Shown: positions 4,493 through 64,000 of the stretch, in pieces | Numbering within the stretch: position 1 is the first letter of the stretch | Layout: every line of letters starts with the position of its first letter | NCBI GenBank assembly: GCA_964513235.1 | Contig: CAZEMI010000017.1 | Span: forward strand, 13,835 to 77,834 | DNA: 64,000 nucleotides | From: an uncultured Acidobacterium sp. | Lineage (GTDB): Bacteria > Acidobacteriota > Vicinamibacteria > Vicinamibacterales > UBA2999 | Reading direction: 5' to 3' | Translations under genes and position numbers: made by a program | Notes under the pieces: generated by a model | What the model saw: the letters and a program-made list of their open reading frames with translations, nothing else | What the model was told of the DNA's origin: nothing | The model's database searches: none

Positions 4493-5167
4493 ATGGGATC
4501 CATGAGGTCGTTGCTTATCTCGGCGGTAGCGGTCGCCATCGCCGGCGCCGGCTCGGTCACCGCGCAAAGCGATCCGGTCGTGCTCGCCGCGAAGGTGCAA
4601 CAGCGCTACAACGGTATCAAGGATTTCCAGGGCGATTTCGTCCAGAGCTATGAAGGCGGCGTGCTGCGCACCAAGACCAGCGAGCGCGGCACGCTGGCCA
4701 TCAAGCGTCCCGGACGCCTTCGTTTTACCTACACGAAACCGGAACGTAAGGAGTTCGTGTCGGACGGCGTTCGACTCTATACCCATCTGGTCGCAGACAA
4801 GCAGGTGATCGTGAGCCCGGCGCCCAGCGCGGATGACGGTGAGGTGCCGGCGATGTTTCTCGCCGGCCAGTCGGACCTCGCGCGGGACTACACCCCCAGC
4901 TTCACGCCACTGCCCGGAGCTGCAACCGGGCTGCTGACGCTCGAGCTGGTCCCGAAGAACAAGGCATCCGAGTTCGAATCGCTCGGCATCGGCCTCGATC
5001 CGAAGACGCTGCAGATCCAGTTCCTCACCGCGGTGGACAAACAGGGTGGCCGATCCTCGTTCGCCTTCAGTAACCTGAAGGAAAATCGGGGTTTGTCCGA
5101 TAAAGACTTCGAGTTTCGCATTCCGCGCGGCGTGGATGTGGTGACCCAAGGTGCACGAACGAAATAA
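4493..5167 (+). CDS. lolA: Outer-membrane lipoprotein carrier LolA
   Basis: 224 aa with a signal peptide (LLISAVAVAIAGAGSVTAQS). The sequence is LolA-like (YNGIKDFQGDFVQ...GTLAIKRPGRLRFTYTKPERKEFVSDG). Confidence 0.8.
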   Translation: MGSMRSLLISAVAVAIAGAGSVTAQSDPVVLAAKVQQRYNGIKDFQGDFVQSYEGGVLRTKTSERGTLAIKRPGRLRFTYTKPERKEFVSDGVRLYTHLVADKQVIVSPAPSADDGEVPAMFLAGQSDLARDYTPSFTPLPGAATGLLTLELVPKNKASEFESLGIGLDPKTLQIQFLTAVDKQGGRSSFAFSNLKENRGLSDKDFEFRIPRGVDVVTQGARTK

Positions 5168-42796: not shown

Positions 42797-42893
42797 ACTA
42801 CATGACGTGTGGCTCCTGAGCCGCACCCAATGATTGGTGTATTGATTACATTGCGTGACGCGTTTACCATGAGGGTTCTTCACGCGAGCGCCC

Positions 42894-44179: not shown

Positions 44180-44195
44180 TGGCGTCCCTCTTGCA
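44180..44195 (+). promoter_or_regulatory. Sigma-54 (-24/-12) promoter candidate
   Basis: TGGCGTCCCTCTTGCA matches TGGCACG-N4-TTGCW with exact GG...GC spacing. The -12 C lies 29 nt upstream of the ATG at 44223. Confidence 0.55.
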
Positions 44196-48793: not shown

Positions 48794-48833
48794 AAAACGA
48801 TCCTCCAAGGTTTGCGGTAGACGGCGGCGGCGT

Positions 48834-48849
48834 TGCAAAACACCTTCCG
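48834..48849 (-). promoter_or_regulatory. Weaker sigma-54 promoter candidate for the giant gene
   Basis: On the minus strand it reads CGGAAGGTGTTTTGCA. The GG/GC spacing is correct, the -12 element TTGCA is good and the -24 element is poor. The -12 C lies 42 nt upstream of the ATG at 48793. Confidence 0.3.
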
Positions 48850-48920: not shown

Positions 48921-48946
48921 ATTTGGCAGACTTTTGTCTGCCAAAT
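48921..48946. promoter_or_regulatory. Perfect 11-4-11 palindrome, candidate enhancer (UAS) site
   Basis: ATTTGGCAGAC-TTTT-GTCTGCCAAAT. Further half-sites are GCAGACTT at 48995-49002 and GTCTGCC at 49075-49081. Confidence 0.5.
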
Positions 48947-49025: not shown

Positions 49026-49085
49026 CCAAGCGCTGCCGTAGATTACGGGTGAGTTCCTACCTGTTGCGCGGAAAGTCTGCCGCGA

Positions 49086-49101
49086 TGGCGACATCTTTGC
49101 T
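49086..49101 (+). promoter_or_regulatory. Sigma-54 (-24/-12) promoter candidate for the EBP-EPS operon
   Basis: TGGCGACATCTTTGCT matches TGGCACG-N4-TTGCW with exact spacing. The -12 C lies 76 nt upstream of the ATG at 49176. Confidence 0.6.
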
Positions 49102-49175: not shown

Positions 49176-50243
49176 ATGCGATTCGATGGAACCGCCCAAC
49201 TTTTGGGCGAGAGTGCGGTTATTCGTGAGCTGCGGGATGAAATAGGGCGCGTCGGCGGCACCGACGCGAAGATCCTCATCACCGGCGAAAGCGGCTCCGG
49301 TAAGGAAGTGGTCGCGCGACAGCTCTGGGCGAACAGTAAGCGCTCGAGCCGGCCGTTTGTCGCCGTCAACTGCGCGGGCCTGCCCGAAACCCTGCTCGAA
49401 TCCGAGCTATTCGGACATGTCCGCGGCAGCTTTACCGGTGCCTTCCGCGACAAGCCCGGCAAGTTGGAAATCGCCGACGAAGGCACCTGCTTCATGGATG
49501 AAATCGGGGAAATGACCCTGCGCATGCAGGGCCTGCTGCTCCGCTTCTTCGAGACCGGCGAAATTCAAAAGGTCGGCGCACACCGCTCGGGCAGCCGCCT
49601 GGACGTCCGCACCATCGCGGCGACCAACGCCAACCTGCCCGAAATGATTCAGAAGGGGCTTTTCAGAGAAGACCTCTTCTACCGCCTCAACGTGATTCAC
49701 CTGATTGTGCCGTCCCTACGCGAGCGGAAGGACGACCTGCCGGTGCTCATCGAGCATTTCGTGGCGCGGCTCTCGCAACCCGGCATCCACGCGGCGCGGG
49801 CGATCTCGCCGGCCGCCGTGGCTCTGCTGAAGGAATACCACTGGCCTGGCAACGTCCGCGAACTGCAGAACGTGATCGAGCGGATGCTCATCCGTTGCCG
49901 CACCGATGTGATCGGCGGCGACGACGTGCCACTCAAGATTCGCGAAAGCCAGCCGCTGACGCCGGCGCCGTTCCGTGAACGCCGGCGGACGATCGTGGAC
50001 GACCTCTATCAGCGGATGACCTCCGAACAGCATTCGTTCTGGACCACCGTGTATCCGCTATACATGCAGCGCGAGATCACCCGCACCAGCGTGCGCGACC
50101 TCGTGCGCCGCGGCTTACAGGACTCCAACGGCAGCTACAAGGTGGTCGCGCGCCTGTTCAACATGGAACAGAACGACTACAAGAAGTTCCTCAATTTCCT
50201 CCGCAAGCATCACTGCCAGCCGTCGTATCGGGAGTTCCGATGA
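49176..50243 (+). CDS. Sigma-54 enhancer-binding protein lacking any N-terminal sensory/receiver domain
   Basis: 355 aa. The AAA+ core begins within about 10 residues of the start ([39 protein letters not shown]). It has a GAFTGA variant (GSFTGA) and ESELFGH. The C-terminal HTH-like segment ([27 protein letters not shown]) diverges from the Fis type. A GGAG Shine-Dalgarno sequence lies 8 nt upstream. Confidence 0.88.
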
Positions 50244-50860
50244 TCAACCGTCTCATCGGCGCCGGTGTCGTGCTCGCGGTCGCCTCGACGGGTGCTCACG
50301 CCCAAGAGGCCCGCCAATCGGAGCATCCGGTGGTGGCGGCCGCCGGCGGCAGCGCTCCCGTGGCGCCTGGGCTGCCATCCGGCTACGTGATCGGCGCCGA
50401 CGATGTGCTGTCGATCGTGTATTGGCGTGAAAAAGAGATGTCGGCCGAGGTGACCGTGCGGCCCGACGGCAAAGTGGCGCTGCCGCTCATCAACGACCTG
50501 AGTGCGGCCGGCCTCACGCCGGAAGCCTTCCGCGACAAAGTGATCGAAGCGGCGCGCCGTTTCGTGGAAGACCCGAACCCGACGGTGATGGTCAAGGAGA
50601 TCAACAGCCGCCGCGTGTTCATCACCGGGCAAGTCGAGAAGCCGGGACCGTATCAGTTGAATCACTCGGTGACAGTGCTGCAACTGATCGCCATGGCCGG
50701 CGGCCTGAAGGAATTCGCGCGCGGCAAGAACATCACCGTGCTCCGGACCGAGGGTGGCCAGCAGGTGGTGCACCGCTTCAACTACCAGGACGCGTTGATC
50801 CGCAAGAATCTCCAGCTGAACATCGAGCTGAAGCCGGGCGACACGATTCTCGTCCCCTAA
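50240..50860 (+). CDS. Polysaccharide export protein (Wza/Poly_export + SLBB type)
   Basis: 206 aa with a signal peptide ([13 protein letters not shown]), [14 protein letters not shown]...[14 protein letters not shown] and a SLBB-like C-terminus. The ATGA overlaps the EBP stop. Confidence 0.85.
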
Positions 50861-50879
50861 CCGGATTGACGGTTTGGAC

Positions 50880-52157
50880 ATGCGCCCCCGCCTCCCTGTT
50901 CCGTTGCTGGCCCTTGTCGTCGCCCTGTCGGTGGCGGGTGCGAACGCGCAACAGGCTCGGAGACCGTTCAGAACCGAGTTCGGCCCAGGCGAGCGAGACG
51001 AGCAGCGCGCGGATCAGCTGGTGCTGACGGGCGGCACCTACGCCGGGGCCGACGACACGTCGCGATTGGCGGGGGCCGCGTTGCTCGATGAAACGCTGCA
51101 AAGCGGACGCATGCATCAAGGCGGCAACGTGTCGCTGCGGTATGTCCGGCGCCGCCCGAGACTCTCGCTGTCCGCGTCCGGCGGGTCGTCAGTGCGCTAT
51201 TACCATTCGCTGAATCGCATCGGCACGCAGCGCCACTCGGTGTCGGCCTCGGGCGAGTGGGTCGCCAGCCGCCAGCTGTCGTTTCAGTTCGGACAGGATG
51301 TCAGCTATTCCCCGTCGTACCACCTGTCGTTCGCCGCCGCACCGGACATCGGTGCCGAGGCGCCGGCCGATCCGGGATCGCTCGACTACGACCTGAGTAG
51401 GAGCAAGCAGTTCATGCTCGGGTCGTTCGCCAGCGCCAGGTACGTCCTGAGCCCGAGCCGTGAGATGACGGCCGGCTACGGCCTGAGCTACACGAACTAT
51501 CTGACCGCGCAACAGCCCGACTTCGGCATCCAGCAGGCCTCGTTTGGTTTCTCGCAGCGGCTGGCCACTGGCGTGGCCCTCAAGTTGGGGTACGGCGTTG
51601 GCACGGGCACGGGCACGGGCCTTGGCGAGGGTGTGCGCCAGATCATCGATGCGGGCGTGGCGTTCGATCGATCGATCTCGATCTCGCCGCGAACCATCGT
51701 CGGGTTCAACTCGGGCTCCGCGATCGTCAACACCGACGGCGGCCGCCAGGTGGAGCTGATTGGCAATCTGAATGTCCGCCGGCGGCTGAGCCCGCGCTGG
51801 ACGGCGTCGATCGCGTATCAACGCGGCCTCATGGCGATCGACGGCGTGCCGAATCCGCTCACGACCAACACCATGACCGCCGACGTGAGCGGGTTCCTCG
51901 GCATGACGACGAGCGTCACCATCCGGCCGGTCTATACGTGGGGGGCCGACGTGAACGACGCGACCCAATCTTTTCGCAACAGCACGAGCATGGCCCGCGT
52001 GCAGACGGCACTGGGACGCCACTTGGCGGCATTCGCCGAATACATCTACTACGACCATCGGTTCGGCGCCATCGTCGGGCTTCGCCCGTCGCTGGCGGTT
52101 GACACGCGCCGGCACGGATTGCGGACCGGCGTGACGTTATGGTCGCCGCTGCGCTAG
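50880..52157 (+). CDS. Putative outer-membrane beta-barrel protein of EPS loci
   Basis: Signal peptide MRPRLPVPLLALVVALSVAGANAQ, alternating beta-strand-like pattern and a C-terminal ...GLRTGVTLWSPLR. It resembles the uncharacterised barrel protein of PEP-CTERM-type loci (from memory). Confidence 0.6.
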   Translation: MRPRLPVPLLALVVALSVAGANAQQARRPFRTEFGPGERDEQRADQLVLTGGTYAGADDTSRLAGAALLDETLQSGRMHQGGNVSLRYVRRRPRLSLSASGGSSVRYYHSLNRIGTQRHSVSASGEWVASRQLSFQFGQDVSYSPSYHLSFAAAPDIGAEAPADPGSLDYDLSRSKQFMLGSFASARYVLSPSREMTAGYGLSYTNYLTAQQPDFGIQQASFGFSQRLATGVALKLGYGVGTGTGTGLGEGVRQIIDAGVAFDRSISISPRTIVGFNSGSAIVNTDGGRQVELIGNLNVRRRLSPRWTASIAYQRGLMAIDGVPNPLTTNTMTADVSGFLGMTTSVTIRPVYTWGADVNDATQSFRNSTSMARVQTALGRHLAAFAEYIYYDHRFGAIVGLRPSLAVDTRRHGLRTGVTLWSPLR

Positions 52158-52170
52158 CGAAGGAGACGTC

Positions 52171-53727
52171 ATGCTGCCCGGCCGCAAATACACGCCCGAA
52201 GACATTGCCGCGATTGCGTGGCGCCGCAAGTGGATGGTCATCTCGGTCGTCGCGATGCTGACGACGGCGGCGATCACAGCGTCGATGCGGCTGCCGGACC
52301 TGTATCGATCCGAGACCCTGATTCTGGTCGTGCCGCAGCGCGTGCCGGAAAGCTACGTGCGCTCGACGGTCACGATGCGGATCGAGGATCGCCTGCGCTC
52401 ACTGCGCCAGCAGATCCTGAGCCGCAGCAATCTCGAGCGCATCATCAACGATTTCCAGCTCTTCGACGAGGACGTCAAGAAGCGGCCGATGGAAGTGATT
52501 GTCGAGGAGATGCGCCAGCGCGTCATCGTCGACACCGTGCGCGAAGACACCTTCAAGGTGTCCTATATCTCCGAGGTGCCGCGGACGGCGATGATTGTCA
52601 CCGACCGGCTGGCGGCGATGTTCATCGAGGAGAACCTGCGCGATCGCGGGCAGCTGGCCGACGGCACGAACGACTTCCTCGAATCGCAGCTCGCCGGCGC
52701 GCGCCAGCGCCTGGTCGGACACGAACAAAAGCTCGAAGCCTACCGGCGGCTCAACTCGGGCGAGCTGCCGTCGCAGCTCCAGTCGAACCTGCAGGTGATC
52801 CAATCCACGCAGAACCAGATTCAAAACCTGAACGAGTCGATCAACCGCGATCAGGATCGCCGCCTGGTGCTCGAGCGATCGCTGGAGGATGCCAATTCCA
52901 GCACGCCCATCGAGCCCGGCAACGCCAGGAACACGGTGCTGGACACGCCCGAAGTGCGCGCCATCGATCAGCTCGAGATCGCGCGCGGCGAGCTGCGCGA
53001 CCTGCTGCTGCGACTCAGGCCCGAACATCCCGACGTGGTGGCGAAGACCAGGACGATCAGGCAGCTCGAAGCCAAGGTCCAGGGCACCGCTTCGAACGGG
53101 ACCGCCCCCGGCCGCAACGAGCCCTACGTCTCCGGCGCCGAGCTGGTGAGGCGCGCGCGCGGCCGCCAGACGCAGCAGGAAATGGCCAAGCTCGACGAGC
53201 AGATCGCGGGCAAAGAGGCCGACATGCGCGACCTGCGGCTGCGCATGAGCGACTACCAGCGCCGCGTCGACGCCGTGCCCGGCCACGAGTCGGAGCTGAT
53301 CGGCCTGATGCGCGACTACGACACGCTGCAGAAGGTCTACGCGGATCTGCTGGCCAAGAAAGAGAACTCGCAGATCTCGGCCAACCTCGAACGCCAGCAG
53401 GTGGGTGAACAGTTCAAGGTGATCGATCCGGCGCGCCTGCCGGAGGCACCGTTCAGCCCGAACCGGCTGCGCATCGCGCTGATCGCCGCGGCGCTGGGAC
53501 TGTTCCTCGCGGTCGGGGTGCTCGGCGTCATCGAATATCGCGACATGACGCTGCGCACCGAAGACGAGATCGTGCGCACGCTGGTGCTGCCGGTGATCGC
53601 CGCCATTCCGCTGATGGCCGCGGTTGCGGACACACGGCGGCGCCAGCGCAATCAACTCCTGATGGGCGCGGCGACGGCCATGACCCTCGTCGGCCTGACC
53701 GTCGCGGTCTGGCGGATGGTGCAGTAG
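52171..53727 (+). CDS. Polysaccharide chain-length determinant (Wzz/GumC/PCP family)
   Basis: 518 aa with an N-terminal Wzz motif and TM (AWRRKWMVISVVAMLTTAAI...YRSETLILV), a long coiled-coil periplasmic region and a C-terminal TM. Confidence 0.85.
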   Translation: MLPGRKYTPEDIAAIAWRRKWMVISVVAMLTTAAITASMRLPDLYRSETLILVVPQRVPESYVRSTVTMRIEDRLRSLRQQILSRSNLERIINDFQLFDEDVKKRPMEVIVEEMRQRVIVDTVREDTFKVSYISEVPRTAMIVTDRLAAMFIEENLRDRGQLADGTNDFLESQLAGARQRLVGHEQKLEAYRRLNSGELPSQLQSNLQVIQSTQNQIQNLNESINRDQDRRLVLERSLEDANSSTPIEPGNARNTVLDTPEVRAIDQLEIARGELRDLLLRLRPEHPDVVAKTRTIRQLEAKVQGTASNGTAPGRNEPYVSGAELVRRARGRQTQQEMAKLDEQIAGKEADMRDLRLRMSDYQRRVDAVPGHESELIGLMRDYDTLQKVYADLLAKKENSQISANLERQQVGEQFKVIDPARLPEAPFSPNRLRIALIAAALGLFLAVGVLGVIEYRDMTLRTEDEIVRTLVLPVIAAIPLMAAVADTRRRQRNQLLMGAATAMTLVGLTVAVWRMVQ

Positions 53728-53731
53728 CCCC

Positions 53732-54733
53732 ATGTACGAGTCCTTTTACGGCCTTCGTGAGCGCCCGTTCGAGCTGACGCCGAATCCGCGCTTCCTGTTC
53801 ATGACGCCCCGCCATCGCGAGGCGTTGACCACGCTGGTGTACGGACTCACGGCGCGCACCGGCATCGCCTTGCTGGTTGGCGAAGCCGGCACCGGCAAGA
53901 CCACGCTCGTCCACGCCGCGCTGCAATCGCAACGCACGCAGGAAGGCATGGCCGTGTACCTGAACAATCCGTCGCTGACGCGCCAGGAGTTCCTCGAATT
54001 CCTCGCCGCCGGATTCGGCTTGAGCGCCGACGCGGCACGGTCGAAGACGCGGTGCCTCGCCGACCTCACCGACTTGCTGGTGTCGCGGCATTCGGCCGGC
54101 GGCATGACCGCGCTCGTGATCGACGAAGCACAATGCCTCCCGGACGACCTGCTCGAGGAAGTGCGGCTGCTCGCCAACATCGAGTCCGCGTCGGAGAAGC
54201 TGCTCTCGATCGTACTCGCGGGCCAGCCGGAGGTGGCGACGCGGCTCAGCCAGCCGTCGCTGCGCCAGTTGAAGCAACGCATCGGCTTGCGGTGCGCGCT
54301 CGCGGCGCTGGACCTGCAGAACACGAGTGCCTACATTGCCGCGCGCGTGCGCATCGCCGGCGGTGAGGCGGCGCAGCTGTTCACGCCCGAGGCGGTGTGC
54401 GAGATCCAGGAGCGCTCGCGCGGCATCCCGCGAACGATCAGCGTGATTTGCGACAACGCGCTGGTCTCGGGCTTTGCGCTCGACCGCAAGCAGATCGATC
54501 GCGAACTCATCGTCGAAGTCTGCGCGGACTTCGACTTCGCCCTGCCCGCCGCTGACGAACCACCGCCGAGGACGGCCGCCGACCTGCTGCCCGCAGTGCG
54601 GCCGGAGCCGGCGGTGCCGTCGCCCCCTGCGGCGGGCACCGTTCCTCGACCTGGAGATGAGCTACTCGCGCGCCTGGCCCGCATCCGCGGCATGGCGGGC
54701 GCAGCCGAAGAGGCGGATGGGACACAGACCTGA
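53732..54733 (+). CDS. ExeA-like AAA ATPase of EPS loci
   Basis: MYESFYGLRERPFELTPNPRFLF..., Walker A GEAGTGKTT and Walker B LVIDEAQ, with a Pro-rich C-terminus. Confidence 0.85.
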   Translation: MYESFYGLRERPFELTPNPRFLFMTPRHREALTTLVYGLTARTGIALLVGEAGTGKTTLVHAALQSQRTQEGMAVYLNNPSLTRQEFLEFLAAGFGLSADAARSKTRCLADLTDLLVSRHSAGGMTALVIDEAQCLPDDLLEEVRLLANIESASEKLLSIVLAGQPEVATRLSQPSLRQLKQRIGLRCALAALDLQNTSAYIAARVRIAGGEAAQLFTPEAVCEIQERSRGIPRTISVICDNALVSGFALDRKQIDRELIVEVCADFDFALPAADEPPPRTAADLLPAVRPEPAVPSPPAAGTVPRPGDELLARLARIRGMAGAAEEADGTQT

Positions 54734-54735
54734 CT

Positions 54736-55656
54736 ATGGCTCGACTCGCTGATGCATTACAGCGCGCCAATCGGACGCGCATGGAACAGGACGGGCCACC
54801 CCCGGCGCCGCCGCCGGCGGCGGAGGAAACGTCGCCGGTCGTGATGCGGCCCCGCGCCGCCGAACGGCCGGCCGCCGCCCACGGTTCGGCGTCGCTGCTC
54901 GGCTTTCCGAAAGGGGAGCCGCAGACAGCCGGATGGCGCTCCAATCCCGAGCTGGTCGGAAAGCTCGTGGGCACCGATGGCGTGTCTGCGGGGGCACTCG
55001 AGCAATACCGAAAACTTGCCGCCACCCTGCATCACACGCAGGAGGAACGCGGCATCCAGGTGGTGATGACCGCGAGCTCGTTGCCGGGCGAAGGCAAGAG
55101 CCTCACCGCCGCCAACCTCGCGCTCACCTTCAGCGAGTCCTACCAGCGGCGCGTGCTGCTGGTCGACGCCGACTTGCGCCGGCCGACGGTGCAGCGCCTG
55201 TTCGACGTGGCCACCATTGACGGCCTCGATGCCGGACTCAAGGCCGAGCACGACCGGCCGATGCCGCTCACGCGGATGTCGGAACGGCTCTGGGTGCTGC
55301 CGGCGGGACGGCCCGACCCCGATCCGCTGAGCGGGCTCACGTCGGATCGCATGCGGCGCTTCGTCCAGGAGGCGCGCACCTTGTTCGACTGGGTGATCAT
55401 CGACACCCCCCCGGTGTCGCTGCTGCCCGACGCAAACCTGCTGGCGGCCAACGTGGATGGCGTCTTGCTCGTGGTCCGTTCCGGCAAGGCGCCCTTCCAG
55501 CTGGTGAAGCGGACCGTCGACACCATCGGTCACGACCGCATCCTGGGCATCGTGATGAACGCCGTGGACTTCAGGCATGACCGCAACGCCGGCGGCTACT
55601 ACGAGTACTACGGTTACGGCTACGGCTACGGCCATTACGGAGCGGGGAAGAAGTAG
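54736..55656 (+). CDS. BY-kinase (CpsD/CapB-type tyrosine autokinase)
   Basis: Walker A SSLPGEGKS, Walker A' VLLVDADLRRP, Walker B DWVIIDTPP and a C-terminal Tyr cluster YYEYYGYGYGYGHYG. Confidence 0.85.
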   Translation: MARLADALQRANRTRMEQDGPPPAPPPAAEETSPVVMRPRAAERPAAAHGSASLLGFPKGEPQTAGWRSNPELVGKLVGTDGVSAGALEQYRKLAATLHHTQEERGIQVVMTASSLPGEGKSLTAANLALTFSESYQRRVLLVDADLRRPTVQRLFDVATIDGLDAGLKAEHDRPMPLTRMSERLWVLPAGRPDPDPLSGLTSDRMRRFVQEARTLFDWVIIDTPPVSLLPDANLLAANVDGVLLVVRSGKAPFQLVKRTVDTIGHDRILGIVMNAVDFRHDRNAGGYYEYYGYGYGYGHYGAGKK

Positions 55657-55661
55657 GGGCC

Positions 55662-57050
55662 ATGGCGAAGGGGCTGATTCAAGACGCGACCTGGCGGTCG
55701 TCGACACTGATCGTCATGGAGAGCGCGCTCATTCTGGGCGCCGTGGCGACCGCGGTCTATGTGCAGGTCGGCGTCGCGACCGGCACCGCCGGCCTGGCCG
55801 GCCTGCTGCCAAAGGCCTTCGTGATCGTGATCGTCTGCCAGCTGTGCCTGTATTGGGGCGATCTCTACGACCACCCGCATTCGAGCGGCAGCTACGTCGA
55901 GCTGATGATTCGCACGCTACAGGCGCTCGGCGCGACCTGCCTCTTGCTGGCCGCGATCTATGCGTTGTTCCCCGATCTGGTGATCGGCCGCGGTGTGCTG
56001 ACCGTCGTCGCGCTGCTCACCACGAGCGGCGTCATCAGCTGGCGGATGATGTTCGGGTGGCTGTCGCGCCGCGTCGGACCGCGCGAGCGGCTGTTGATGG
56101 TCGGCGCGAGCAGCGCCGGCCTGGCGCTCGCCCGCGAGCTGCACGACAACGACGAGGCGGGCGTGCAGATCGTCGGCGTGGTCGACAACGACGGCGCCAC
56201 CGCGAGCGACCCGAGGCTGCTCTGGCTTGGCGGGATTGAAGAGATTCCATCGATCGTCCGCGCTCGCGGCGTCGATCGCGTGGTCGTCAGCCTCGCCGAT
56301 GCCCGCGGCAAGCTGCCCATGGACAAGATGCTCGAGATGAAGCTCGATGGGGTGTCGTTCGACTATCTCGCCTCGGTCTACGAGGAATACACCGGCAAGA
56401 TCGCCGTCGAGAATCTTCGTCCGAGCTGGTTGATCTTCTCGCCCGGATTTCGCAAGACGCGCCGCCTGCTGGCCCTCAAGCGGGCGCTCGATGTGGTGTC
56501 GGCACTGGCCGGGTTGATCCTGTCGGCGCCGCTTCTGGTGGGGCTCGCGGCGATCATCAAGATCACCTCGCCGGGGCCGGTGTTCTATTCACAGCGGCGC
56601 GTCGGCCGCGACTCGCGCATCTTCACCGTCTACAAGCTGCGGTCGATGTGCCACGACGCCGAGCGGCAGACCGGTCCCGTGTGGGCGGCACGCGCCGGCG
56701 ACACGCGGATCACCTGGATCGGCCGTTTCATGCGCCGCACGCGCCTCGACGAGATCCCGCAGTTCTGGAACATCCTGATTGGCAACATGAGCTTCGTCGG
56801 GCCGCGGCCGGAGCGGCCCGAGTTCGTGCGGTCACTCTCCGAGCAGATTCCGTTCTATCGCCAGCGGCACGTGATCAAGCCCGGCCTCACGGGCTGGGCG
56901 CAGGTGCGCTACACCTACGGCGCCACGGTGGAAGAGGCGATGGAGAAACTCCAGTACGACCTCTACTACATCAAGCACCTGTCGGTGACGTTCGACCTGT
57001 TCATCATCTTCGAGACCATCAAGACCGTCCTGTTGCGGCGGGGGAATTAA
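55662..57050 (+). CDS. Undecaprenyl-phosphate sugar phosphotransferase (WbaP/EpsB-type initiating enzyme)
   Basis: 462 aa with N-terminal TM helices, a Rossmann-like linker and the Bac_transf core (KRALDVV...PGPVFYSQRRVG..FTVYKLRSM...DEIPQFWNILIGNMSFVGPRP). Confidence 0.9.
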   Translation: MAKGLIQDATWRSSTLIVMESALILGAVATAVYVQVGVATGTAGLAGLLPKAFVIVIVCQLCLYWGDLYDHPHSSGSYVELMIRTLQALGATCLLLAAIYALFPDLVIGRGVLTVVALLTTSGVISWRMMFGWLSRRVGPRERLLMVGASSAGLALARELHDNDEAGVQIVGVVDNDGATASDPRLLWLGGIEEIPSIVRARGVDRVVVSLADARGKLPMDKMLEMKLDGVSFDYLASVYEEYTGKIAVENLRPSWLIFSPGFRKTRRLLALKRALDVVSALAGLILSAPLLVGLAAIIKITSPGPVFYSQRRVGRDSRIFTVYKLRSMCHDAERQTGPVWAARAGDTRITWIGRFMRRTRLDEIPQFWNILIGNMSFVGPRPERPEFVRSLSEQIPFYRQRHVIKPGLTGWAQVRYTYGATVEEAMEKLQYDLYYIKHLSVTFDLFIIFETIKTVLLRRGN

Positions 57051-57949
57051 TGGCCGACGCCGCCAACGCCGCGATCATCAATGCGATGACCGTCGACGTC
57101 GAAGACTACTTTCACGTCAGCGTGTTCGACGGCGTGATCCCCCGCCATACGTGGGATCGCCTCGACAGCCGCGTCTGCGGCAACACCACGCGGCTGCTGA
57201 AGATTTTCGAGGCGACCGGCGTTCGGGCCACCTTCTTCATCCTGGGCTGGGTCGCCGAGCGTTTCCCGTCGCTCGTCGGCGAGATCGCCGCGGCCGGCCA
57301 CGAGATCGCGTCGCACGGCTACGGGCATCGCCTGGTCTACGACTTGACGCCGGACGCCTTCCGCGACGATGTCCGGCGGTCGAAGGATCTGCTCGAGTCG
57401 GCCACTGGCGTGCCGGTCTACGGCTACCGGGCGCCGAGTTATTCGGTGACGGCGCGATCGTTGTGGGCGCTCGACGTCCTGATCGACGAAGGGTTCCGTT
57501 ACGACGCCAGCATCTTTCCGATTCACCACGATCGCTACGGCATCCCGACCTCGCCGCGCCACCCGTACGTGTTGCAGCGCCACTATTCGCTGATCGAAGC
57601 ACCGGGGTCGACGGTGCAGTGGGGTCCGTTCAACCTGCCGGTGGCGGGCGGCGGCTATTTTCGGATCCTGCCGTATGCCTGGACGCGATGGGGCATCACG
57701 CGCCTCAACCAGGCGGAGCGCGCACCGGCGATCTTCTATCTGCATCCGTGGGAGATCGATCCCGGGCAACCGCGGCTGCCCGCGAGCCTGCTGGGCCGCT
57801 TCCGTCACTACTTCAATCTCTCGCAGACCGAGTCGCGCCTGCGCGCGTTGCTCAGCGACTTCCGGTTTTCGACCATGGCCTCGGTGCTCCGGCGCGCCGG
57901 GTTCGACCTTCACGACACCAGCCCCGCGCCGCTGCCCTACGTCTGGTAG
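57050..57949 (+). CDS. Polysaccharide deacetylase (EPS-locus subfamily)
   Basis: NAMTVDVEDYFH...ATFFILGWVAERFP...GHEIASHGYGH. The ATG at 57050 overlaps the upstream stop (TAATG). Confidence 0.85.
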   Translation: MADAANAAIINAMTVDVEDYFHVSVFDGVIPRHTWDRLDSRVCGNTTRLLKIFEATGVRATFFILGWVAERFPSLVGEIAAAGHEIASHGYGHRLVYDLTPDAFRDDVRRSKDLLESATGVPVYGYRAPSYSVTARSLWALDVLIDEGFRYDASIFPIHHDRYGIPTSPRHPYVLQRHYSLIEAPGSTVQWGPFNLPVAGGGYFRILPYAWTRWGITRLNQAERAPAIFYLHPWEIDPGQPRLPASLLGRFRHYFNLSQTESRLRALLSDFRFSTMASVLRRAGFDLHDTSPAPLPYVW

Positions 57950-57967
57950 CGCCGCCCGGAGAGACCC

Positions 57968-59062
57968 ATGTCCGCCTCGGTTGCCGCAGTCCCCCGGCTT
58001 GCACGTTCGGCGTCGACGGTGCCGCCGGCCGTTGACGTCGCACTGTCGACAAACCCCTCGCCCGCGGCGTGGGACCAGTTCGCGCGACACACGCCAGATG
58101 CCGGGCTCTATCACCTGTGGGGCTGGCGCCGCGTCATCGAAGAGACGTTCGGCCACGAGACCATCTACCTGTCGGCCACGCACGCCGGCGCGATTGTCGG
58201 CATCCTGCCGCTCGCAATTTTCCGCAGCCGGATCTTCGGGAACTTCGCGGTGTCGCTGCCATTCGTTGACCAGGGCGGCATCTGCGCGGCCGACGAGGGC
58301 GTGAGACGCGTCCTGGCCAATTGCGCCGCGTCGGTTGCCGCCAGCCGGCACTTGTCTCACGTGGAGCTGCGCCATGTGGCGCGGCAGCAGCCCGAGCTGC
58401 CGGTGCGGCAGCACAAGGTCGGCATGACGCTGCGCCTGGTGCCGGATCTCGGCAAGGCGTGGACGCTGCTCGATCGCAAGGTGCGCAACCAGGTTCGCAA
58501 GGCGGAAAAGGGCGGACTGACCGAGCGGCGCGGCGGGCTGGAGTTGCTGGACGCGTTCTACGACGTGTTCTGCCACAACATGCGCGATCTCGGCACGCCC
58601 GTCTATCCGCGCCTCTTCTTCGAGCGCATCATCTCGACCTTCGCCGATTCATCCACCGTGTTCGTGGTCGAGGATCCACGGCGCACACCCGTCGCCGCCG
58701 CGATCGGTCTGGTGCATCGAGACTCCTTCGCGGTGCCGTGGGCCTCGTCGCTGCGCGAGTTCCGGGCGCAGAGTCCGAACACGCTGTTGTATTGGCGGAT
58801 GATCGAGCACGCCATCGCCTCGGGATTGACGACTTTTAACTTCGGCCGTTCGACACCTGGCGAAGGCACGTATCAATTCAAGGAACAATGGGGCGCGCGC
58901 CCCACACCGCTGCACTGGGAATACGTCCTCGAGTCAGGACGGCCGCTCCCGGATCTCACCCCCAAGAATCCGAAGTTCCGCGCCGCCATCGCCGCCTGGA
59001 AGCGGCTGCCGGTGCCGGTGACGCGATGGATCGGCCCCCACATCATTCGCTCGATTCCCTAG
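57968..59062 (+). CDS. FemAB/GNAT-like protein of EPS loci
   Basis: 364 aa (WDQFARHTPDAGLYHLWGWRRVIEETFGH...LLYWRMIEHAIASGLTTFNFGRSTPGEGTYQFKEQWGA). Confidence 0.8.
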   Translation: MSASVAAVPRLARSASTVPPAVDVALSTNPSPAAWDQFARHTPDAGLYHLWGWRRVIEETFGHETIYLSATHAGAIVGILPLAIFRSRIFGNFAVSLPFVDQGGICAADEGVRRVLANCAASVAASRHLSHVELRHVARQQPELPVRQHKVGMTLRLVPDLGKAWTLLDRKVRNQVRKAEKGGLTERRGGLELLDAFYDVFCHNMRDLGTPVYPRLFFERIISTFADSSTVFVVEDPRRTPVAAAIGLVHRDSFAVPWASSLREFRAQSPNTLLYWRMIEHAIASGLTTFNFGRSTPGEGTYQFKEQWGARPTPLHWEYVLESGRPLPDLTPKNPKFRAAIAAWKRLPVPVTRWIGPHIIRSIP

Positions 59063-59079
59063 GGGCCACACGCGATCGC

Positions 59080-60348
59080 GTGTACACGTCGGTTGCCGTT
59101 GCCTTCGTCGCGCTCGCGACCTGGGGCAGCTGGTTTCCGTTCGTGTTCCGTCCGTTGCCGTGGGATGTCGCCATCGCGTGGCTGTGGTGGAGCGCTACGC
59201 CCGCACAATTCTCGCTGACCGACGCGCTCTCGAACCTGCTGCTGTTCGTGCCGATTGGCGTGTTCGCGGCATCAGTGCTCGGCCGCCGCGGACGAGTGCG
59301 CGACAGCGTGGCCGTGATCGCCCTCGGCGCGGCGCTCAGTCTTGCGCTCGAACTGGGCCAGCTGCTGGTGCCGTGGCGAATCCCCTCGGTGCTCGACATC
59401 GCCTTCGAGACCGCCGGCATGGTGGTGGGGGTGTTGGTACGGCGCGTGGCCGCGGCGGAGCTCGACGCTCTGACGGGCCGGCTGATCATGGCCTGGCGCA
59501 CGGCCGGCATTCGCGAGCGCGTGCTGTGGGCCTACACGGCCACGTTCGCCATCGCGTGGCTGATGCCATTCGACTTCACCATCCGTCCGGATGAGATCGG
59601 CGACAAGTACGAGCACAAACGGCTGGTGTTGCCGTGGATGCCGTCGCCCGATGCGGCCACCACGGCCGAGTCATGGCTGACCGCGGCTGCCGCGGTGCCG
59701 CTCGGCTGGGCCTTCGTGCTATGTGCGAGCGATGCAGGCTGGCGACGCTCGGTGGCCGCGGCCATCGCCGACGCCGCGGCGCTGCTGGTGGCGCTGACCC
59801 TGTTGCAAGTGACGGTGTTCTCGCGCACCACCGACATCACTCTCACGTTCGCCGCGTTCGGCGGCGCTGCCGCCGGCGCCATCATGGCGGCCCGCATGAC
59901 GGTTCGGACGGTGCGCCCGCGGGACCACTCGTCGATGCGGTTCGCGGCGCTCGCCGCCACCTGGATCGCGGCGGTGATTGCGATCGAATGGTGGCCGCTT
60001 CAGTTCAATCTCGACGTCGATCGCATCCGGCAGCACGCCGCCGCCTGGTCGTACGCGCCGTTTCGCGCGCCAGCCACGGCCGCGGACGTCGTGCCGGGCG
60101 CCCTGCTCGCCATTGCCGGTGCCGTGATCGCATCGCCGGGCAGCCGCGCGGCGTACGCGCGCCTCCACCTGATGGCCGCACTCATCGCCGCCGGCGCGCT
60201 CTTCGCGACGATTGAGGCCGGACACCTCCTGGCCGAGACCCACACCCCCACGCTGGCATCGGTTGCGATTAAGCTCCTCGCATTCGCCGTCACGCTCGCC
60301 TTCGCGAGCGCGGCGCAGCCGATCTGGTCGTCGCAGGCACGGTCATGA
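59080..60348 (+). CDS. Polytopic membrane protein with three VanZ-like repeats (start uncertain: GTG 59080 or ATG 59026)
   Basis: LTDALSNLLLFVPIG...ELGQLLVPWRIPSVLDIAFETAGMVVG is VanZ-like. Two further degenerate copies follow (LLQVTVFSRTTDITLTFAAFGGAAAG and IEAGHLLAETHTPTLASVAIKLLAF). There is no exosortase-type CSG motif. Confidence 0.55.
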   Translation: MYTSVAVAFVALATWGSWFPFVFRPLPWDVAIAWLWWSATPAQFSLTDALSNLLLFVPIGVFAASVLGRRGRVRDSVAVIALGAALSLALELGQLLVPWRIPSVLDIAFETAGMVVGVLVRRVAAAELDALTGRLIMAWRTAGIRERVLWAYTATFAIAWLMPFDFTIRPDEIGDKYEHKRLVLPWMPSPDAATTAESWLTAAAAVPLGWAFVLCASDAGWRRSVAAAIADAAALLVALTLLQVTVFSRTTDITLTFAAFGGAAAGAIMAARMTVRTVRPRDHSSMRFAALAATWIAAVIAIEWWPLQFNLDVDRIRQHAAAWSYAPFRAPATAADVVPGALLAIAGAVIASPGSRAAYARLHLMAALIAAGALFATIEAGHLLAETHTPTLASVAIKLLAFAVTLAFASAAQPIWSSQARS

Positions 60349-62888
60349 TGTCGGCGCCGCTCACCGTGTCGATTCCCGCCACGCCGAATCGCGGCGTGCT
60401 ATGTGAGCCGCTGACCTTCGGGATGCCCTTCCCTGCGGGGCTGGTCCGCGACGAGAGCGATATTCATCTTCACGACGACGCCAGCCGCGTCACCGCGCTC
60501 CAGGCTCGCGCGACCGAGCGATGGCCTGACGGCAGCATCCGCTGGGCGTTGCTCGATTTCCTGCTCACGGGTGCGCCGGCGCCGGAGCGGCAGTTCTCGG
60601 TTCGTCTCGGCGCCGCCGGCCCGCAGCCGGCCGCGCCTCCGCTCACCATCGACGCCGCGGCGCGCAAGATCACAATTGATACCGGGGTCGCATCGTTTGT
60701 CGTCAAGACGGGACCTGCATTCCCATTCGCCTCCGTGCACGTGCTGGGGGTGCCCGCACTCGGCGCGGCGGGGTGCGCATTCGTGACGACCACGCCGGAC
60801 GGGCGGACGCTCGAGACGCGGGTCACCGACGTGGCCGTCGAAGAGCGGGGCGCATTGCGAGCGACCGTGCGGATCCACGCCAGCGTGGGCCCGCCCCGGC
60901 ATCCATCCTTGCTGCTGACTGCCCGCGTGCAGTTCATTGCCGGGTCGGCGGCGGTGCGCCTGGCGGTCACGCTGCGCAACGTCAAGCGCGCGCAGCATCC
61001 GGGAGGCATCTGGGAGTTGGGCGACCGCGGATCCGTCTACCTGCGCGACGTCTCGCTGCGGCTTGGTCTTCCCGGCGCCATCACGCAGACCGAGTGCGCT
61101 CCCGAGATCGGCACGCCCGCTGAATCCTGCCCGGCGCCGGTGGAGCTGTACCAGGATTCGAGCGGCGGCGCCAACTGGCACCACACCGCCCACGTCGATC
61201 GGCACGGCGAGATTCCGTGCACATTTTGCGGCTACCGGTTGCACGGCGACGGCCGCCGCGCCGACGGGCGGCGCGCGACGCCGCTGATGATCGCGCGGCA
61301 CGCCACCGGCATGGCCGGCATCGCGGTCGAGCACTTCTGGCAGAACTGGCCGCAGGCGATCGCGATTGAACCCGACGCCGTCGTCTGGCGGATGCTCCCC
61401 GGACACACGGCCAACGAACACGAGTTGCAAGGCGGCGAACAGAAGACCCATCGCTGCACGCTGATTTTCGGCGACGATCCCTGCGCGCGCGACGCGGGTA
61501 TTTGGGGTCGGATACCGGCGTTTGCGCGGCTCACGCCGGCATGGTATTGCGCCAGCCAGGCCGCCGGCGTGCTGACGCGCGCCGGATCCGATCCATATCA
61601 GCAGCTCGTCGACGCCGCCATCGAGGGTCCCGGTTCATTGCTGCAGAAGCGCGAGGACGCCGACGAGTACGGCTGGCGGCACTTCGGCGACATCTACGCC
61701 GATCACGAGAATGCGTTCAGCGGACTCGATGTGCCGGTGGTCTCGCACTACAACAACCAATACGACGCCATCGCCGGGTTCGCGCTGCAGTTCATGCGCT
61801 CGGGCGACCCGCGCTGGCACACGATGATGAACGAGCTGGCGTGGCACGTCGCCGACATCGACATCTACCATACGGATCGCGACAAGAGCGCGTACAACCA
61901 CGGCTTGTTCTGGCACACGGCGCATTACGTGACCGCCGGGCGCTCGTCGCATCGATCCTTCCCGAAGGACCCGCGCGTCAAAGGTGGCGGCCCGGCCAAC
62001 GAGCACAACTACACCGCCGGACTGCGCCTGCACTGGCTGCTCACCGGCGACTCGCCATCGCGCGAGGCGGCGATCGAGCTGGCCACGTGGGTGATCCAAA
62101 TGGACGACGGGCGCCGTACCTTCCTGCGCTGGTTGAGCACCAGCAACACGGGACTTGCGAGCCAGACCTACTCGCCGTCATTCCACGGACCCGGCCGCGG
62201 CGCCGGCCATTCGATTCTCGCGCTACTCGACGGGCATCGCCTGACGCACGACGACCTGTACCTGGCGAAGGCCGAACAGTTGGTGCGCCGCTGCATTCAT
62301 CCGGCCGACGACATCGAACGGCTGGACCTGCTCGATGCCGAGCGGCGCTGGTCGTACACCGTGTTCCTGCAGGTCCTGGGGCGGTATCTGGATTATCGCG
62401 TCGAACTCGGGCTGGTCGATGAGCACTACACCTACGCCCGCGCCGCGCTCGTGCACTACGCGCGCTGGATGATCGCCAACGAGTATCCGTATCTCGACAA
62501 GCCCAGGATGCTCGAATATCCCACCGAGACGTGGGCGGCGCAGGACATGCGCAAGTGCGACGTGCTCCTCGTCGCCGCGGGTCACGTCTCCGGCGACGAG
62601 CGTCGCATGTTCCTGTCGACCGCGGCACGGTTCTTCGAGTACTCAGTCACCACGCTGCTGTCGATGCCGGCGCGAACCCTCGCGCGTCCCCTCGTGCTGA
62701 TGCTGACCAACGGCTACCAGTACTTGTCGCCTGATGCTTCCGCGCCGCGGCCCGAGGGGCCGCTCGTCGCCGACTTCGGCGCGCCGGCGATATTCGTGCC
62801 ACAGAAAGCGCTGGTCAAGCGGCGGATTGCGATGACCGCCGGCGCGGTGGTCTTCGTGATCACTGCCACGGTCCTCGCACTGATCTGA
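60345..62888 (+). CDS. PcRGLX/YetA-like putative glycan lyase/hydrolase with C-terminal TM anchor (paralog of the giant protein N-region)
   Basis: 847 aa with N-terminus LTFGMPFPAGLVRDESDIHLHDD...ERWPDGSIRWALLDF, a helical region NEHNYTAGLRLHWLLTGDSPSREAAIELATW and a C-terminal TM helix IAMTAGAVVFVITATVLALI. The ATGA overlaps the upstream gene. Confidence 0.6.
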   Translation: MMSAPLTVSIPATPNRGVLCEPLTFGMPFPAGLVRDESDIHLHDDASRVTALQARATERWPDGSIRWALLDFLLTGAPAPERQFSVRLGAAGPQPAAPPLTIDAAARKITIDTGVASFVVKTGPAFPFASVHVLGVPALGAAGCAFVTTTPDGRTLETRVTDVAVEERGALRATVRIHASVGPPRHPSLLLTARVQFIAGSAAVRLAVTLRNVKRAQHPGGIWELGDRGSVYLRDVSLRLGLPGAITQTECAPEIGTPAESCPAPVELYQDSSGGANWHHTAHVDRHGEIPCTFCGYRLHGDGRRADGRRATPLMIARHATGMAGIAVEHFWQNWPQAIAIEPDAVVWRMLPGHTANEHELQGGEQKTHRCTLIFGDDPCARDAGIWGRIPAFARLTPAWYCASQAAGVLTRAGSDPYQQLVDAAIEGPGSLLQKREDADEYGWRHFGDIYADHENAFSGLDVPVVSHYNNQYDAIAGFALQFMRSGDPRWHTMMNELAWHVADIDIYHTDRDKSAYNHGLFWHTAHYVTAGRSSHRSFPKDPRVKGGGPANEHNYTAGLRLHWLLTGDSPSREAAIELATWVIQMDDGRRTFLRWLSTSNTGLASQTYSPSFHGPGRGAGHSILALLDGHRLTHDDLYLAKAEQLVRRCIHPADDIERLDLLDAERRWSYTVFLQVLGRYLDYRVELGLVDEHYTYARAALVHYARWMIANEYPYLDKPRMLEYPTETWAAQDMRKCDVLLVAAGHVSGDERRMFLSTAARFFEYSVTTLLSMPARTLARPLVLMLTNGYQYLSPDASAPRPEGPLVADFGAPAIFVPQKALVKRRIAMTAGAVVFVITATVLALI

Positions 62889-63044: not shown

Positions 63045-64000
63045 ATGGCAGTCCTGACTTTGCTCGATCCTGGCATCACCCGAACTCCGCACCCATTTTC
63101 GCAGCATCTCCGGCGCGCGCACGCCGGAGTCCGACGGTTGCGCCACCTCCTGCTGATCGCGGCTGCACTGGTGCTGATCGTCCCCGCCGCCTCGGCGCAG
63201 ACGCTGCCGCACAACATTCCGGATTTCTCGCAAGACCCGACCCGGCCGACGGTCCGCAGTGTCGGCACCGGCCGCTGGGCGAACGCCGGCACGTGGCAGG
63301 GCGGCCAGGTACCGACCGCCAACCACGTTGTCCATGTCGATCCCGACCATGTCGTCACGATCGATACCGTGACCGCGACCGCTTACACGCTGGCGGTGCA
63401 CGGCACGCTGCGGTTCGACCCTGCCGCCGACGGCCGGCTGACGGTCACCAACGTGATGATCATGGGCGATCACGGCATGCCCGAAATGACCACGGTTGGT
63501 CATCTTGAAGTGGGCACGGCCGCCAGCCCGATCGCCGTGGGCCGCACCGCCGAAATCGTCCTCGCCGACACGCCGCTCGGCGCGGGTGTATCGGATCCGG
63601 AGCAATTCGGGAACGGCATCATCAACTTCGGCAGGTTCACCGTTCACGGCGCACCGGTCACACCGACCTTTACCCGGGTGGCCACCGAACCGCGGGCCGG
63701 GCATACGTCGCTGACACTGTCTGAACCGGTCAGCGGGTGGAGTGCCGGCGACCGGCTGGTGCTGCCGGATACGCGTCACATCAAGGAGTCCGAAACGACT
63801 GGCGGAGGTTGGATCAACGCGCAAAACCAGTGGGAGGAGCGGACGGTACAGTCGATCTCAGCCGACGGCCGTGTCATCACGCTCACCCAGTCGCTGCAAT
63901 TCGATCATCTCGGCGCGCGCGATCAGAATGGCACGCTCGACTTCCTGCCGCACGTCGGCAACTTGACGCGTAACGTCGTCATCCGTTCCGAGAACGCCAC
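63045..64000 (+). CDS. G8-domain / beta-helix-type secreted protein, N-terminal part (runs off the window end)
   Basis: This ORF is not in the supplied track because it has no stop in the window, so I translated it by hand. An in-frame TAG lies at 63021 and the first ATG at 63045. The product begins ...GVRRLRHLLLIAAALVLIVPAASAQ (signal, possibly Tat-like RR). It continues with RWANAGTWQGGQVPTANHVVHVDPDHVVTIDTVTATAYTLAVHGTLRFDP, which is the G8 signature W..G..P....V.I.....V..D......L.V.G.L.F. Confidence 0.7.
   Translation, partial: MAVLTLLDPGITRTPHPFSQHLRRAHAGVRRLRHLLLIAAALVLIVPAASAQTLPHNIPDFSQDPTRPTVRSVGTGRWANAGTWQGGQVPTANHVVHVDPDHVVTIDTVTATAYTLAVHGTLRFDPAADGRLTVTNVMIMGDHGMPEMTTVGHLEVGTAASPIAVGRTAEIVLADTPLGAGVSDPEQFGNGIINFGRFTVHGAPVTPTFTRVATEPRAGHTSLTLSEPVSGWSAGDRLVLPDTRHIKESETTGGGWINAQNQWEERTVQSISADGRVITLTQSLQFDHLGARDQNGTLDFLPHVGNLTRNVVIRSENA

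Follow-up and report, generated by a model that had tools for sequence, protein, structure and literature searches.

The probable 5′ module of an XrtA-type exopolysaccharide locus with a probably unlinked exosortase in an uncultured Vicinamibacterales bacterium

How can a bacterium make an exopolysaccharide (EPS) from an operon that has genes for export, initiation and modification of the polymer, and none for a glycosyltransferase (GT), a polymerase or an exosortase? The question is raised by an operon at positions 49176-62888 of a 64,000-nt stretch of contig CAZEMI010000017.1 (the window), from an uncultured member of the Vicinamibacterales (Acidobacteriota). An earlier note, made from the sequence alone, had described it as a PEP-CTERM-type EPS operon in which those functions are missing. 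We conclude, with a probability of about 0.72, that the operon forms the 5′ module of an XrtA-type, Wzy-dependent EPS locus that is under sigma-54 control, measures at least 35-40 kb and has its exosortase unlinked. The genes of this module serve regulation and export, the control of chain length, initiation, and the early modification of the sugar.

The listing of open reading frames (ORFs) and gene calling based on G+C content at third codon positions (GC3) give 11 co-directional genes on the + strand (Table 1). The earlier note counted 12, although its own list also names 11; its description of tight packing on one strand with overlapping stop and start codons is borne out by the ORF listing and the gene calls. 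Every gap is 19 nt or less, non-overlapping neighbours lie 2-19 nt apart, and stop and start codons overlap in ATGA at 50240, TAATG at 57050 and ATGA at 60345. The gene order recurs in contigs of relatives (L002 and L004-L008) and in about 15 metagenome contigs, so the arrangement is not due to chance.

The products encoded in the window were scanned with the NCBIfam and Pfam profiles, and scores are given in bits against the curated NCBIfam cut-off. Three proteins pass the cut-off of the model that had been predicted for them: the initiating glycosylphosphotransferase (EpsB_2, TIGR03013, 431.9 against 393.35), the deacetylase (pepcterm_polyde, TIGR03006, 405.2 against 276.2) and the FemAB-like protein (pepcterm_femAB, TIGR03019, 376.1 against 260.35). 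Four more have the predicted model as best match, below its cut-off. These are the outer-membrane polysaccharide export protein (OPX; pepcterm_export, TIGR03027, 136.5 against 180, with EpsY second at 107.3), the polysaccharide co-polymerase (PCP; pepcterm_ChnLen, TIGR03007, 257.9 against 278.85), which has transmembrane (TM) segments at both ends, the ExeA-like ATPase (pepcterm_ATPase, TIGR03015, 241.9 against 324.5; Pfam AAA_22, 90.4 bits) and the bacterial tyrosine (BY) kinase (pepcterm_TyrKin, TIGR03018, 135.6 against 230.65). The kinase passes the generic eps_fam model TIGR01007 (134.1 against 108), and its sequence contains Walker A, A′ and B motifs together with the C-terminal tail GGYYEYYGYGYGYGHYG. 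The XrtA/PEP-CTERM-type accessory set proposed in the earlier note is therefore present, with the predicted pepcterm model as top match everywhere except at the barrel; the expected hit of the 427-aa protein at that position to pepcterm_hypo_1 (TIGR03016) did not materialize in the NCBIfam scan. An initiating transferase, a PCP, a BY-kinase and an OPX are all there, as for a Wzx/Wzy-dependent pathway.

The OPX is short (206 aa): it stops at its SLBB domain, and a pore helix of the Wza type is missing from its C-terminus, as judged from the sequence and the model alignment; its orthologues match Pfam Poly_export and SLBB. Translocons composed of an OPX and a β-barrel are established, and a short OPX works with a separate β-barrel (PMC9601211, PMC9603273, PMC12819527). 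The 427-aa secreted protein, whose gene adjoins that of the OPX, is the obvious candidate, and is probably the β-barrel partner. It has a signal peptide and no TM segments, and its position is kept in L004, L006 and L008. It has no Pfam or NCBIfam match, and a Pfam search at E ≤10 with four orthologues gave nothing consistent. Membership of a TIGR03016-type family was considered and rejected, as hhalign against three such proteins gave a probability of 0.3. A sequence search of the PDB found no match to the putative barrel, and an AF2 single-sequence model (pLDDT 32) was unusable. Among the contexts read, the TIGR03015-like ATPase gene occurs in the window and L004 only, with about seven metagenome loci in addition. 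In L006-L008 the PCP and BY-kinase genes have no such gene between them, which makes the ATPase dispensable for the conserved core.

XrtA/PEP-CTERM EPS loci were described by Haft et al. 2006 (PMC1569441), and the epsSMASH preprint (10.64898/2025.12.21.693542) deals with the zooglan-type cluster. Our comparison loci were those of Nitratidesulfovibrio vulgaris Hildenborough plasmid pDV (DVU_RS16055-16160; L013) and a Sphingomonas parapaucimobilis plasmid (L015). With such loci the window shares the TIGR03013 transferase, the short exporter, the chain-length determinant, the BY-kinase, the ExeA-like ATPase, a secreted protein in the outer-membrane slot, the DUF3473 deacetylase, the FemAB-like protein and a sigma-54 activator within the locus. 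Identity to the pDV proteins is 54% for the deacetylase, 48% for FemAB and 47% for EpsB. Genes for a TIGR03087-like GT, a TIGR03097 Wzy-like protein and a TIGR03108-like amidotransferase are shared with the window's relatives. By contrast, neither the window nor the loci of its closest relatives have exosortase, EpsI, PrsT or PEP-CTERM genes, and femAB is followed by genes for a VanZ-like and a PL26-fold protein where canonical loci have stp1-xrtA-epsI. The putative barrel is not TIGR03016, the activator is receiver-less and not PrsR, the transferase gene lies in mid-operon, no flippase is seen, and four families fall below curated cut-offs.

A second likeness is to the EpsY/EpsX translocon of Myxococcus xanthus. 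There is the same OPX without pore helix (206 aa in the window, with EpsY as second-best match), an adjacent secreted protein of about 430 aa, and PCP and BY-kinase encoded by separate genes. Unlike that system, the window's 427-aa protein has no detectable homology to any barrel family.

No GT2 or GT4 and no Wzx or Wzy was found within the 64-kb window. As a property of the locus, however, the lack of GTs and polymerase stated in the earlier note most likely does not hold, to judge from a comparison with relatives. These were collected with the PL26-fold (PcRGLX-like) protein encoded by the last gene of the operon, a protein with over 3300 homologues, the majority of them from soil metagenomes. 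The best 120 of these are all about 860 aa and 50-100% identical, and the named ones come from Vicinamibacterales or Acidobacteriota metagenome-assembled genomes; those with 63-67% identity are assigned to the Vicinamibacterales, and L002, with 77%, to the Acidobacteriota. A scan of genome contigs gave two loci, one of which (L003) shares nothing but the PcRGLX-like gene. The loci read, with the identity of their PcRGLX-like proteins, are L004 (extended by L009; 81%), L005 (67%), L008 (57%) and L006/L007 (54%). Common to them is the order activator, OPX, 427-aa protein, PCP, BY-kinase, EpsB_2, deacetylase, FemAB, PcRGLX-like protein. L004, L006, L007 and L009 are long-read contigs from ENA with many frameshifts (the G8, chain-length determinant, deacetylase and VanZ genes are split), so that their gene lengths are unreliable.

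Five relatives have longer contigs, and in each of them GT4/GT2, TIGR03087-like, TIGR03097 Wzy_C and TIGR03108-like genes come after the PcRGLX-like gene or after the gene for a giant G8 protein. In L005 the PcRGLX-like gene is followed by that of a G8/CEMIP protein, 2388 aa at full length, and then by convergent genes for a GT4, a hexapeptide transferase and a GT4. The giant gene of L004+L009 is followed by genes for a methyltransferase, GT4, hexapeptide transferase, GT4, GT2, GT4, Asn-synthase-type amidotransferase, methyltransferase, Wzy_C protein, 636-aa protein, APH-like protein, GT4 and DegT. GT4/GT2, Wzy_C and amidotransferase genes come directly after the operon in L006/L007 and L008. 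The Wzy_C proteins fall in TIGR03097, the exosortase-A-associated O-ligase-like family (L006 200.1 against 188.1, L010 190, L009 179.6). The amidotransferases have TIGR03108 as best match, at 620 and 576 bits and so below the cut-off of 817, and the GTs of L004, L005 and L008-L012 are strong phmmer homologues of a bona fide TIGR03087 GT. Since five relatives carry these genes just past the operon or the G8 gene, the absence of GTs and polymerase here is very probably an artefact of the window edge. We note that the GT clusters of two relatives also encode secreted proteins without family match, of 393 aa (L006 19495-20676) and 428 aa (L010 8533-9819), which look alike by eye, e.g. LLYQGAFRVPAG and LVYEGAFRLPAT.

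The exosortase is a different matter. No exosortase, EpsI or PEP-CTERM protein was found in the window, and no polytopic protein encoded there resembles an exosortase; the earlier note had said the same, and its statement is upheld by Pfam, NCBIfam and six-frame phmmer searches for the exosortase, and by a regex search of six-frame ORFs for PEP-CTERM substrates. The called genes of L004-L012 have no Exosortase_EpsH Pfam match on record, and exosortase models found no match in NCBIfam scans of the relatives' unannotated ORFs. Again, phmmer with four exosortase queries detected nothing among all six-frame ORFs of the window and L001-L012. These queries were the annotated exosortases of the pDV and Sphingomonas loci, which were reached by tblastn with FemAB; the exosortases of L031 and L062 were detected as positive controls. 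A regex search for PEP-CTERM tails on all six-frame ORFs of the window and L001-L011 was likewise negative. In the 81% relative (L004+L009) an exosortase is absent from the roughly 19 kb that follow the PcRGLX-like gene, a stretch that reaches about 23 kb past femAB, and in L005-L008 it is absent from the 10 kb to each side of the PcRGLX-like gene. For the lineage of the window, this means that the exosortase does not lie within about 40 kb.

These distances bear on an alternative, an ordinary XrtA locus cut at the window edge. The earlier note had named an exosortase with GTs immediately beyond the window as a refutation of its reading, and the relatives bear out the half of this that concerns GTs. 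In the form considered here, the exosortase would close one continuous cluster, past the DNA seen in relatives. In pDV xrt does end a 25-kb operon, with the exosortase 14 kb downstream of femAB (L013). Moreover the GT, Wzy and amidotransferase genes do sit past the edge in the relatives, and the DNA read for L009 stops while EPS genes (GT4, DegT) are still continuing. It is the exosortase that fails to appear over the DNA seen there, in the 10 kb past the PcRGLX-like gene in L006/L007 or the 19 kb in L004+L009. L008 looks bounded, from a receiver gene at the 5′ side to an APH-family gene after the amidotransferase gene, and there is no exosortase between them; on the upstream side, 49 kb of the window are taken up by housekeeping genes. 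We regard a simple cut at the edge as quite improbable.

Is there then an exosortase in this organism at all? A metagenome scan with the PcRGLX alignment gave 80 more loci, three of which have an exosortase or EpsI (L031, L048 and L062). The exosortase of L062 scores 132.8 against 105.55 on TIGR02602 and lies in the order PrsT-like, exosortase, TIGR03087 GT, unannotated ORF, two carbamoyltransferases, FemAB, PcRGLX-like; that of L031 scores 149.7 bits, and L048 has an EpsI domain at the edge of the locus. A PEP-CTERM protein is encoded in L012 (confirmed by TIGR02595, 22.8 against 16, beside deacetylase and FemAB genes), and candidate PEP-CTERM proteins in L049 and L053. With such hallmarks in these distant loci, the family of PcRGLX-like genes can be assigned to EPS loci of the exosortase type. 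The PcRGLX-like proteins of the six hallmark loci are only 45-51% identical to that of the window.

An exosortase-independent variant, with no exosortase or PEP-CTERM protein anywhere in the genome and the VanZ-like and PL26-fold proteins filling the stp1-xrtA-epsI slot, would account for the empty stretches in the window and its relatives. It would fit the finding that among loci of the window's type (femAB-(VanZ)-PcRGLX) only L062 has an exosortase in reach, and L062 has no VanZ gene. Neither the G8 protein nor a 1296-aa secreted protein encoded divergently from the operon carries a PEP-CTERM signal at its C-terminus. Further, plasmid pTAD1 of Chelatococcus daeguensis (L014, 94-107 kb) has a deacetylase and a FemAB protein, named by PGAP as of the "XrtA system", in a Wzy-type EPS cluster, and the PLSDB gene table, which is incomplete, lists no exosortase in the 20 kb to either side. 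The pTAD1 cluster differs from the window in gene order and has no PcRGLX-like or VanZ-like genes; since it bears the XrtA-specific names with no exosortase nearby, such names are evidently applied regardless of linkage. Against independence stand the exosortases, EpsI, PrsT-like tetratricopeptide repeat (TPR) and PEP-CTERM proteins of the distant PcRGLX-like loci, and the co-occurrence of these EPS families with EpsH across genomes (Haft 2006, PMC1569441). The variant is unlikely in our judgement.

The VanZ-like protein also speaks on this point. It matches Pfam VanZ (58.7 against 30.1) and has about 10 hydrophobic segments in a TM scan, and in 13 or more loci its gene separates femAB from the PcRGLX-like gene; L008 lacks it. 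Homologues of about 435 aa are encoded in one operon with the exosortase of L031, with a 4-nt overlap, and two genes from the exosortase/EpsI gene of L048. This suggests a partner of the exosortase and not a replacement for it, and hints that VanZ-like polytopic proteins are an unrecognised exosortase-associated family. The two operons lie at L031 19847-22260 (-) and L048 14561-18634 (-), and L048 also has a PrsT-like TPR gene.

Haft et al. (PMC1569441) found epsH "nearly always" among the EPS genes, and for this reason an unlinked exosortase is a deviation. An exosortase-free neighbourhood is not unprecedented, since that of Chelatococcus pTAD1 is similar. Most likely the genes for the exosortase and its PEP-CTERM substrates lie at another place in the genome.

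The PL26-fold protein passes both PcRGLX_1st (40.6) and PcRGLX_2nd (27.1) in Pfam, the N-terminal domain beginning at residue 22. An AF2 model from a 54-sequence alignment has pLDDT 85 and pTM 0.90, and its top Foldseek matches are 5xqg/5xq3 (E 8e-25, TM-score about 0.6, 12-13% identity over the whole length). Confidence is low over only one long part of the model, an invariant His-rich segment at residues 508-552. A sequence search of the PDB with the protein found no match, nor did tblastn of it and the VanZ-like protein against plasmids. The three-domain fold is that of the PL26 exo-rhamnogalacturonan lyase PcRGLX from Penicillium chrysogenum (PDB 5XQ3, 5XQG, 5XQO) and the bacterial YetA-like family. 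Unlike the lyase, at 12-13% identity, the window's protein has no secretion signal, carries a C-terminal anchor and is encoded in a biosynthetic and not a catabolic operon. It has no signal peptide and ends in a KRR motif and a single TM helix, and is predicted to be tail-anchored with its bulk facing the cytoplasm; for these reasons a role as an extracellular, secreted depolymerase is unlikely. The genes for the VanZ-like and tail-anchored PL26-fold proteins are lineage-typical, conserved additions after femAB.

We turn now to regulation. The first gene of the operon encodes a sigma-54 enhancer-binding protein (EBP) with no receiver or sensor domain, its NorR, NtrC and PspF matches (NCBIfam) being confined to the central and C-terminal regions. 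An assignment as PrsR was rejected (TIGR02915, 262.7 against 502.6, and no receiver domain). The PrsK/PrsR/PrsT trio was not encountered: the nearby PAS histidine kinase, encoded with a receiver-bearing sigma-54 response regulator at 37608-41257 (-), scores 87 against 300 on PrsK, so that this pair is not PrsK/PrsR, and there is no PrsT in the window. A stand-alone receiver protein is encoded upstream; its ORF opens at 43920, and ATG at 44223 is the probable start as read from the sequence. The orthologue in L008 lies directly upstream of the EBP gene, and the protein is probably the trans-acting partner of the receiver-less EBP.

Between the receiver and EBP genes there is a perfect palindrome, and closer to the EBP gene a half-site and a -24/-12 element. 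The element TGGCGACATCTTTGC has its -24 GG and -12 GC at canonical spacing. Upstream of EBP in L008 there are an identical palindrome core GGCAGACTTTTGTCTGCC, a GTCTGCC half-site and the element TGGCCGCAGCCTTGC (676-693, 823-837). In L006/L007 a variant of the palindrome and element lies between the EBP and OPX genes (L006 1164 and 1302). We therefore have a predicted sigma-54-dependent operon whose element arrangement is kept in L008 and shifted in L006/L007. The exact motif TGGC-N7-TTGC has 22 matches in the window and L004-L012, about 13 of them intergenic and, by reading, just 5′ of EPS operons; the genes behind such matches include Wzy_C, GT2, amidotransferase and G8 genes and the receiver gene (44180). 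This distribution suggests a single dedicated sigma-54 regulon that would cover the EPS operons. Scans for sigma-70 promoters and terminators remained at chance level. Sigma-54 control of PEP-CTERM systems in Proteobacteria is a parallel (PMC1569441, PMC9850573).

From these family assignments we infer the following pathway. The receiver-less activator, probably controlled in trans by the receiver protein, would bind the GGCAGAC-N4-GTCTGCC palindrome and fire the -24/-12 promoters before the operon, and probably also those before the downstream GT operons. The EpsB_2-type phosphotransferase would prime undecaprenyl phosphate, and the DUF3473 deacetylase and FemAB-like enzyme would modify an amino sugar at the cytoplasmic face. 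The repeat unit would be finished by the GT4/GT2, acetyl- and methyltransferases and the Asn-synthase-like amidotransferase encoded beyond the window, and polymerized by the downstream TIGR03097 Wzy-like protein. Chain length would be set by the PCP and the separate BY-kinase, and the polymer may leave through the short, pore-less OPX, probably with the secreted 427-aa protein as β-barrel partner.

Several observations weigh against this interpretation. The models TIGR03027, TIGR03007, TIGR03015 and TIGR03018 all score below their curated cut-offs. The barrel assignment is based only on position and a signal peptide, and the downstream content is deduced from relatives at 54-81% identity. A Wzx (MOP-family) flippase was found in no locus, there being no Polysacc_synt Pfam match and no result from two Wzx phmmer queries. 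The sigma-54 motif is not enriched above chance across the whole window, so that the argument is one of position and conservation. Finally, the EPS genes of L009 reach the edge of the sequence read, where DegT runs off, and an exosortase could lie farther along.

One might go further and see a re-wired XrtA-type scaffold, with the VanZ-like protein and PL26-fold enzyme as new core parts in the stp1-xrtA-epsI slot and a sigma-54 regulon driven by a receiver-less activator through the GGCAGAC-N4-GTCTGCC enhancer. We think this doubtful. If it were true, the pathway would work without an exosortase, or the VanZ-like protein would be an unrecognised exosortase partner. The operon is most likely the front half of a larger, fairly conventional XrtA-type EPS cluster, a modest variant of a known system. 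What is unusual is the unlinked or absent exosortase, the VanZ-like/PL26-fold pair, the non-TIGR03016 outer-membrane candidate, the receiver-less activator with its enhancer motif, and the lack of a recognisable flippase.

Table 1. Features of the EPS operon and its surroundings. Positions are those of the window; HTH, helix-turn-helix; UAS, upstream activating sequence.
Feature	Position	Strand	Basis
Sigma-54 EBP, 355 aa, AAA+ and HTH	49176..50243	+	NCBIfam NorR, NtrC, PspF
Short OPX, 206 aa, signal peptide	50240..50860	+	TIGR03027, EpsY
Secreted 427-aa protein, putative outer-membrane β-barrel	50874(50880)..52157	+	signal peptide, position
PCP / chain-length determinant, without kinase domain	52171..53727	+	TIGR03007 full length
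AAA_22 / ExeA-like ATPase	53732..54733	+	TIGR03015; Pfam AAA_22
BY autokinase	54736..55656	+	TIGR01007, TIGR03018, Walker motifs
Initiating polyprenyl-phosphate glycosylphosphotransferase, EpsB_2 type	55662..57050	+	TIGR03013; multi-TM topology
XrtA-type polysaccharide deacetylase (Polysacc_deac_1 and DUF3473), cytoplasmic	57050..57949	+	TIGR03006; Pfam
FemAB-family (aminoacyl-transferase-like) protein	57968..59062	+	TIGR03019
VanZ-like polytopic membrane protein, ~440 aa	59026..60348	+	Pfam VanZ; TM scan
PL26 (PcRGLX)-fold protein, 847 aa, C-terminal TM helix	60345..62888	+	Pfam, AF2, Foldseek
Giant secreted G8 / CEMIP β-helix protein, 5′ end only (window edge)	63138..64000	+	Pfam G8 51.8 bits; L001, L005 gene calls
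1296-aa secreted protein, divergent from operon	44948..48838	-	Pfam He_PIG Ig domains and TSP_3 (thrombospondin-3) repeats
Stand-alone receiver protein, 224 aa	44223..44897	+	Pfam Response_reg 47.9 bits
Putative sigma-54 -24/-12-like element TGGCGTCCCTCTTGC	44180..44194	+	exact TGGC-N7-TTGC; 29 nt before receiver ATG
Perfect palindrome ATTTGGCAGAC-TTTT-GTCTGCCAAAT, candidate enhancer (UAS) for EBP	48921..48946	.	conserved in relatives
Half-site GTCTGCC then sigma-54 -24/-12 element TGGCGACATCTTTGC	49075..49100	+	76 nt before EBP ATG

The surroundings of the operon include one further probable member of the locus. The 1296-aa secreted protein has an N-terminal domain of about 700 aa (46700-48793 (-)) with no Pfam, NCBIfam or PDB match, which recurs in the EPS loci of relatives (L009 2391-4301, L005 11265-13118, L004 12760-14662), and its gene probably belongs to the EPS locus. 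In the relatives the domain occurs on its own, as part of the G8/CEMIP giant protein, or joined to Calx-beta domains. A weak MYXO-CTERM/MtsC match of the 1296-aa protein was traced to its thrombospondin repeats and dismissed as a sorting signal, and with it the idea that the DNA is of myxobacterial origin. Homologues retrieved with the G8 fragment were at most 501 aa long, and none was a full-length orthologue.

In the first 44 kb of the window there are housekeeping genes: pyrH, frr, pfk, murA/B/C-like, nagZ-like, trmD, rimM, rplS, ffh and rib genes, together with ftsY, gpsA, plsY, cinA, pgpA, nrdR and purC. Among them, at 5151-7019 (+), is a lone gene for a secretin with N-terminal TPR repeats. 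A flippase-like LPG_synthase_TM / TIGR00374 protein with 8 TM segments is encoded at 41741-43012 (-), 6 kb upstream of the EPS locus, and may be unrelated to it.

Once the operon is read as part of a complete XrtA-type cluster, the seeming paradox of EPS genes without GTs disappears. Other questions follow: whether the exosortase is truly unlinked or lacking altogether, what the PL26-fold and VanZ-like proteins do in biosynthesis, and whether one sigma-54 activator serves the whole cluster. In soil the Vicinamibacterales rank with the most abundant bacteria, and they have hardly been cultured. The locus is apparently widespread, to judge from the homologues of its PcRGLX-like marker in soil metagenomes, and the exopolysaccharides of Vicinamibacterales are probably important in soil aggregation and carbon retention.

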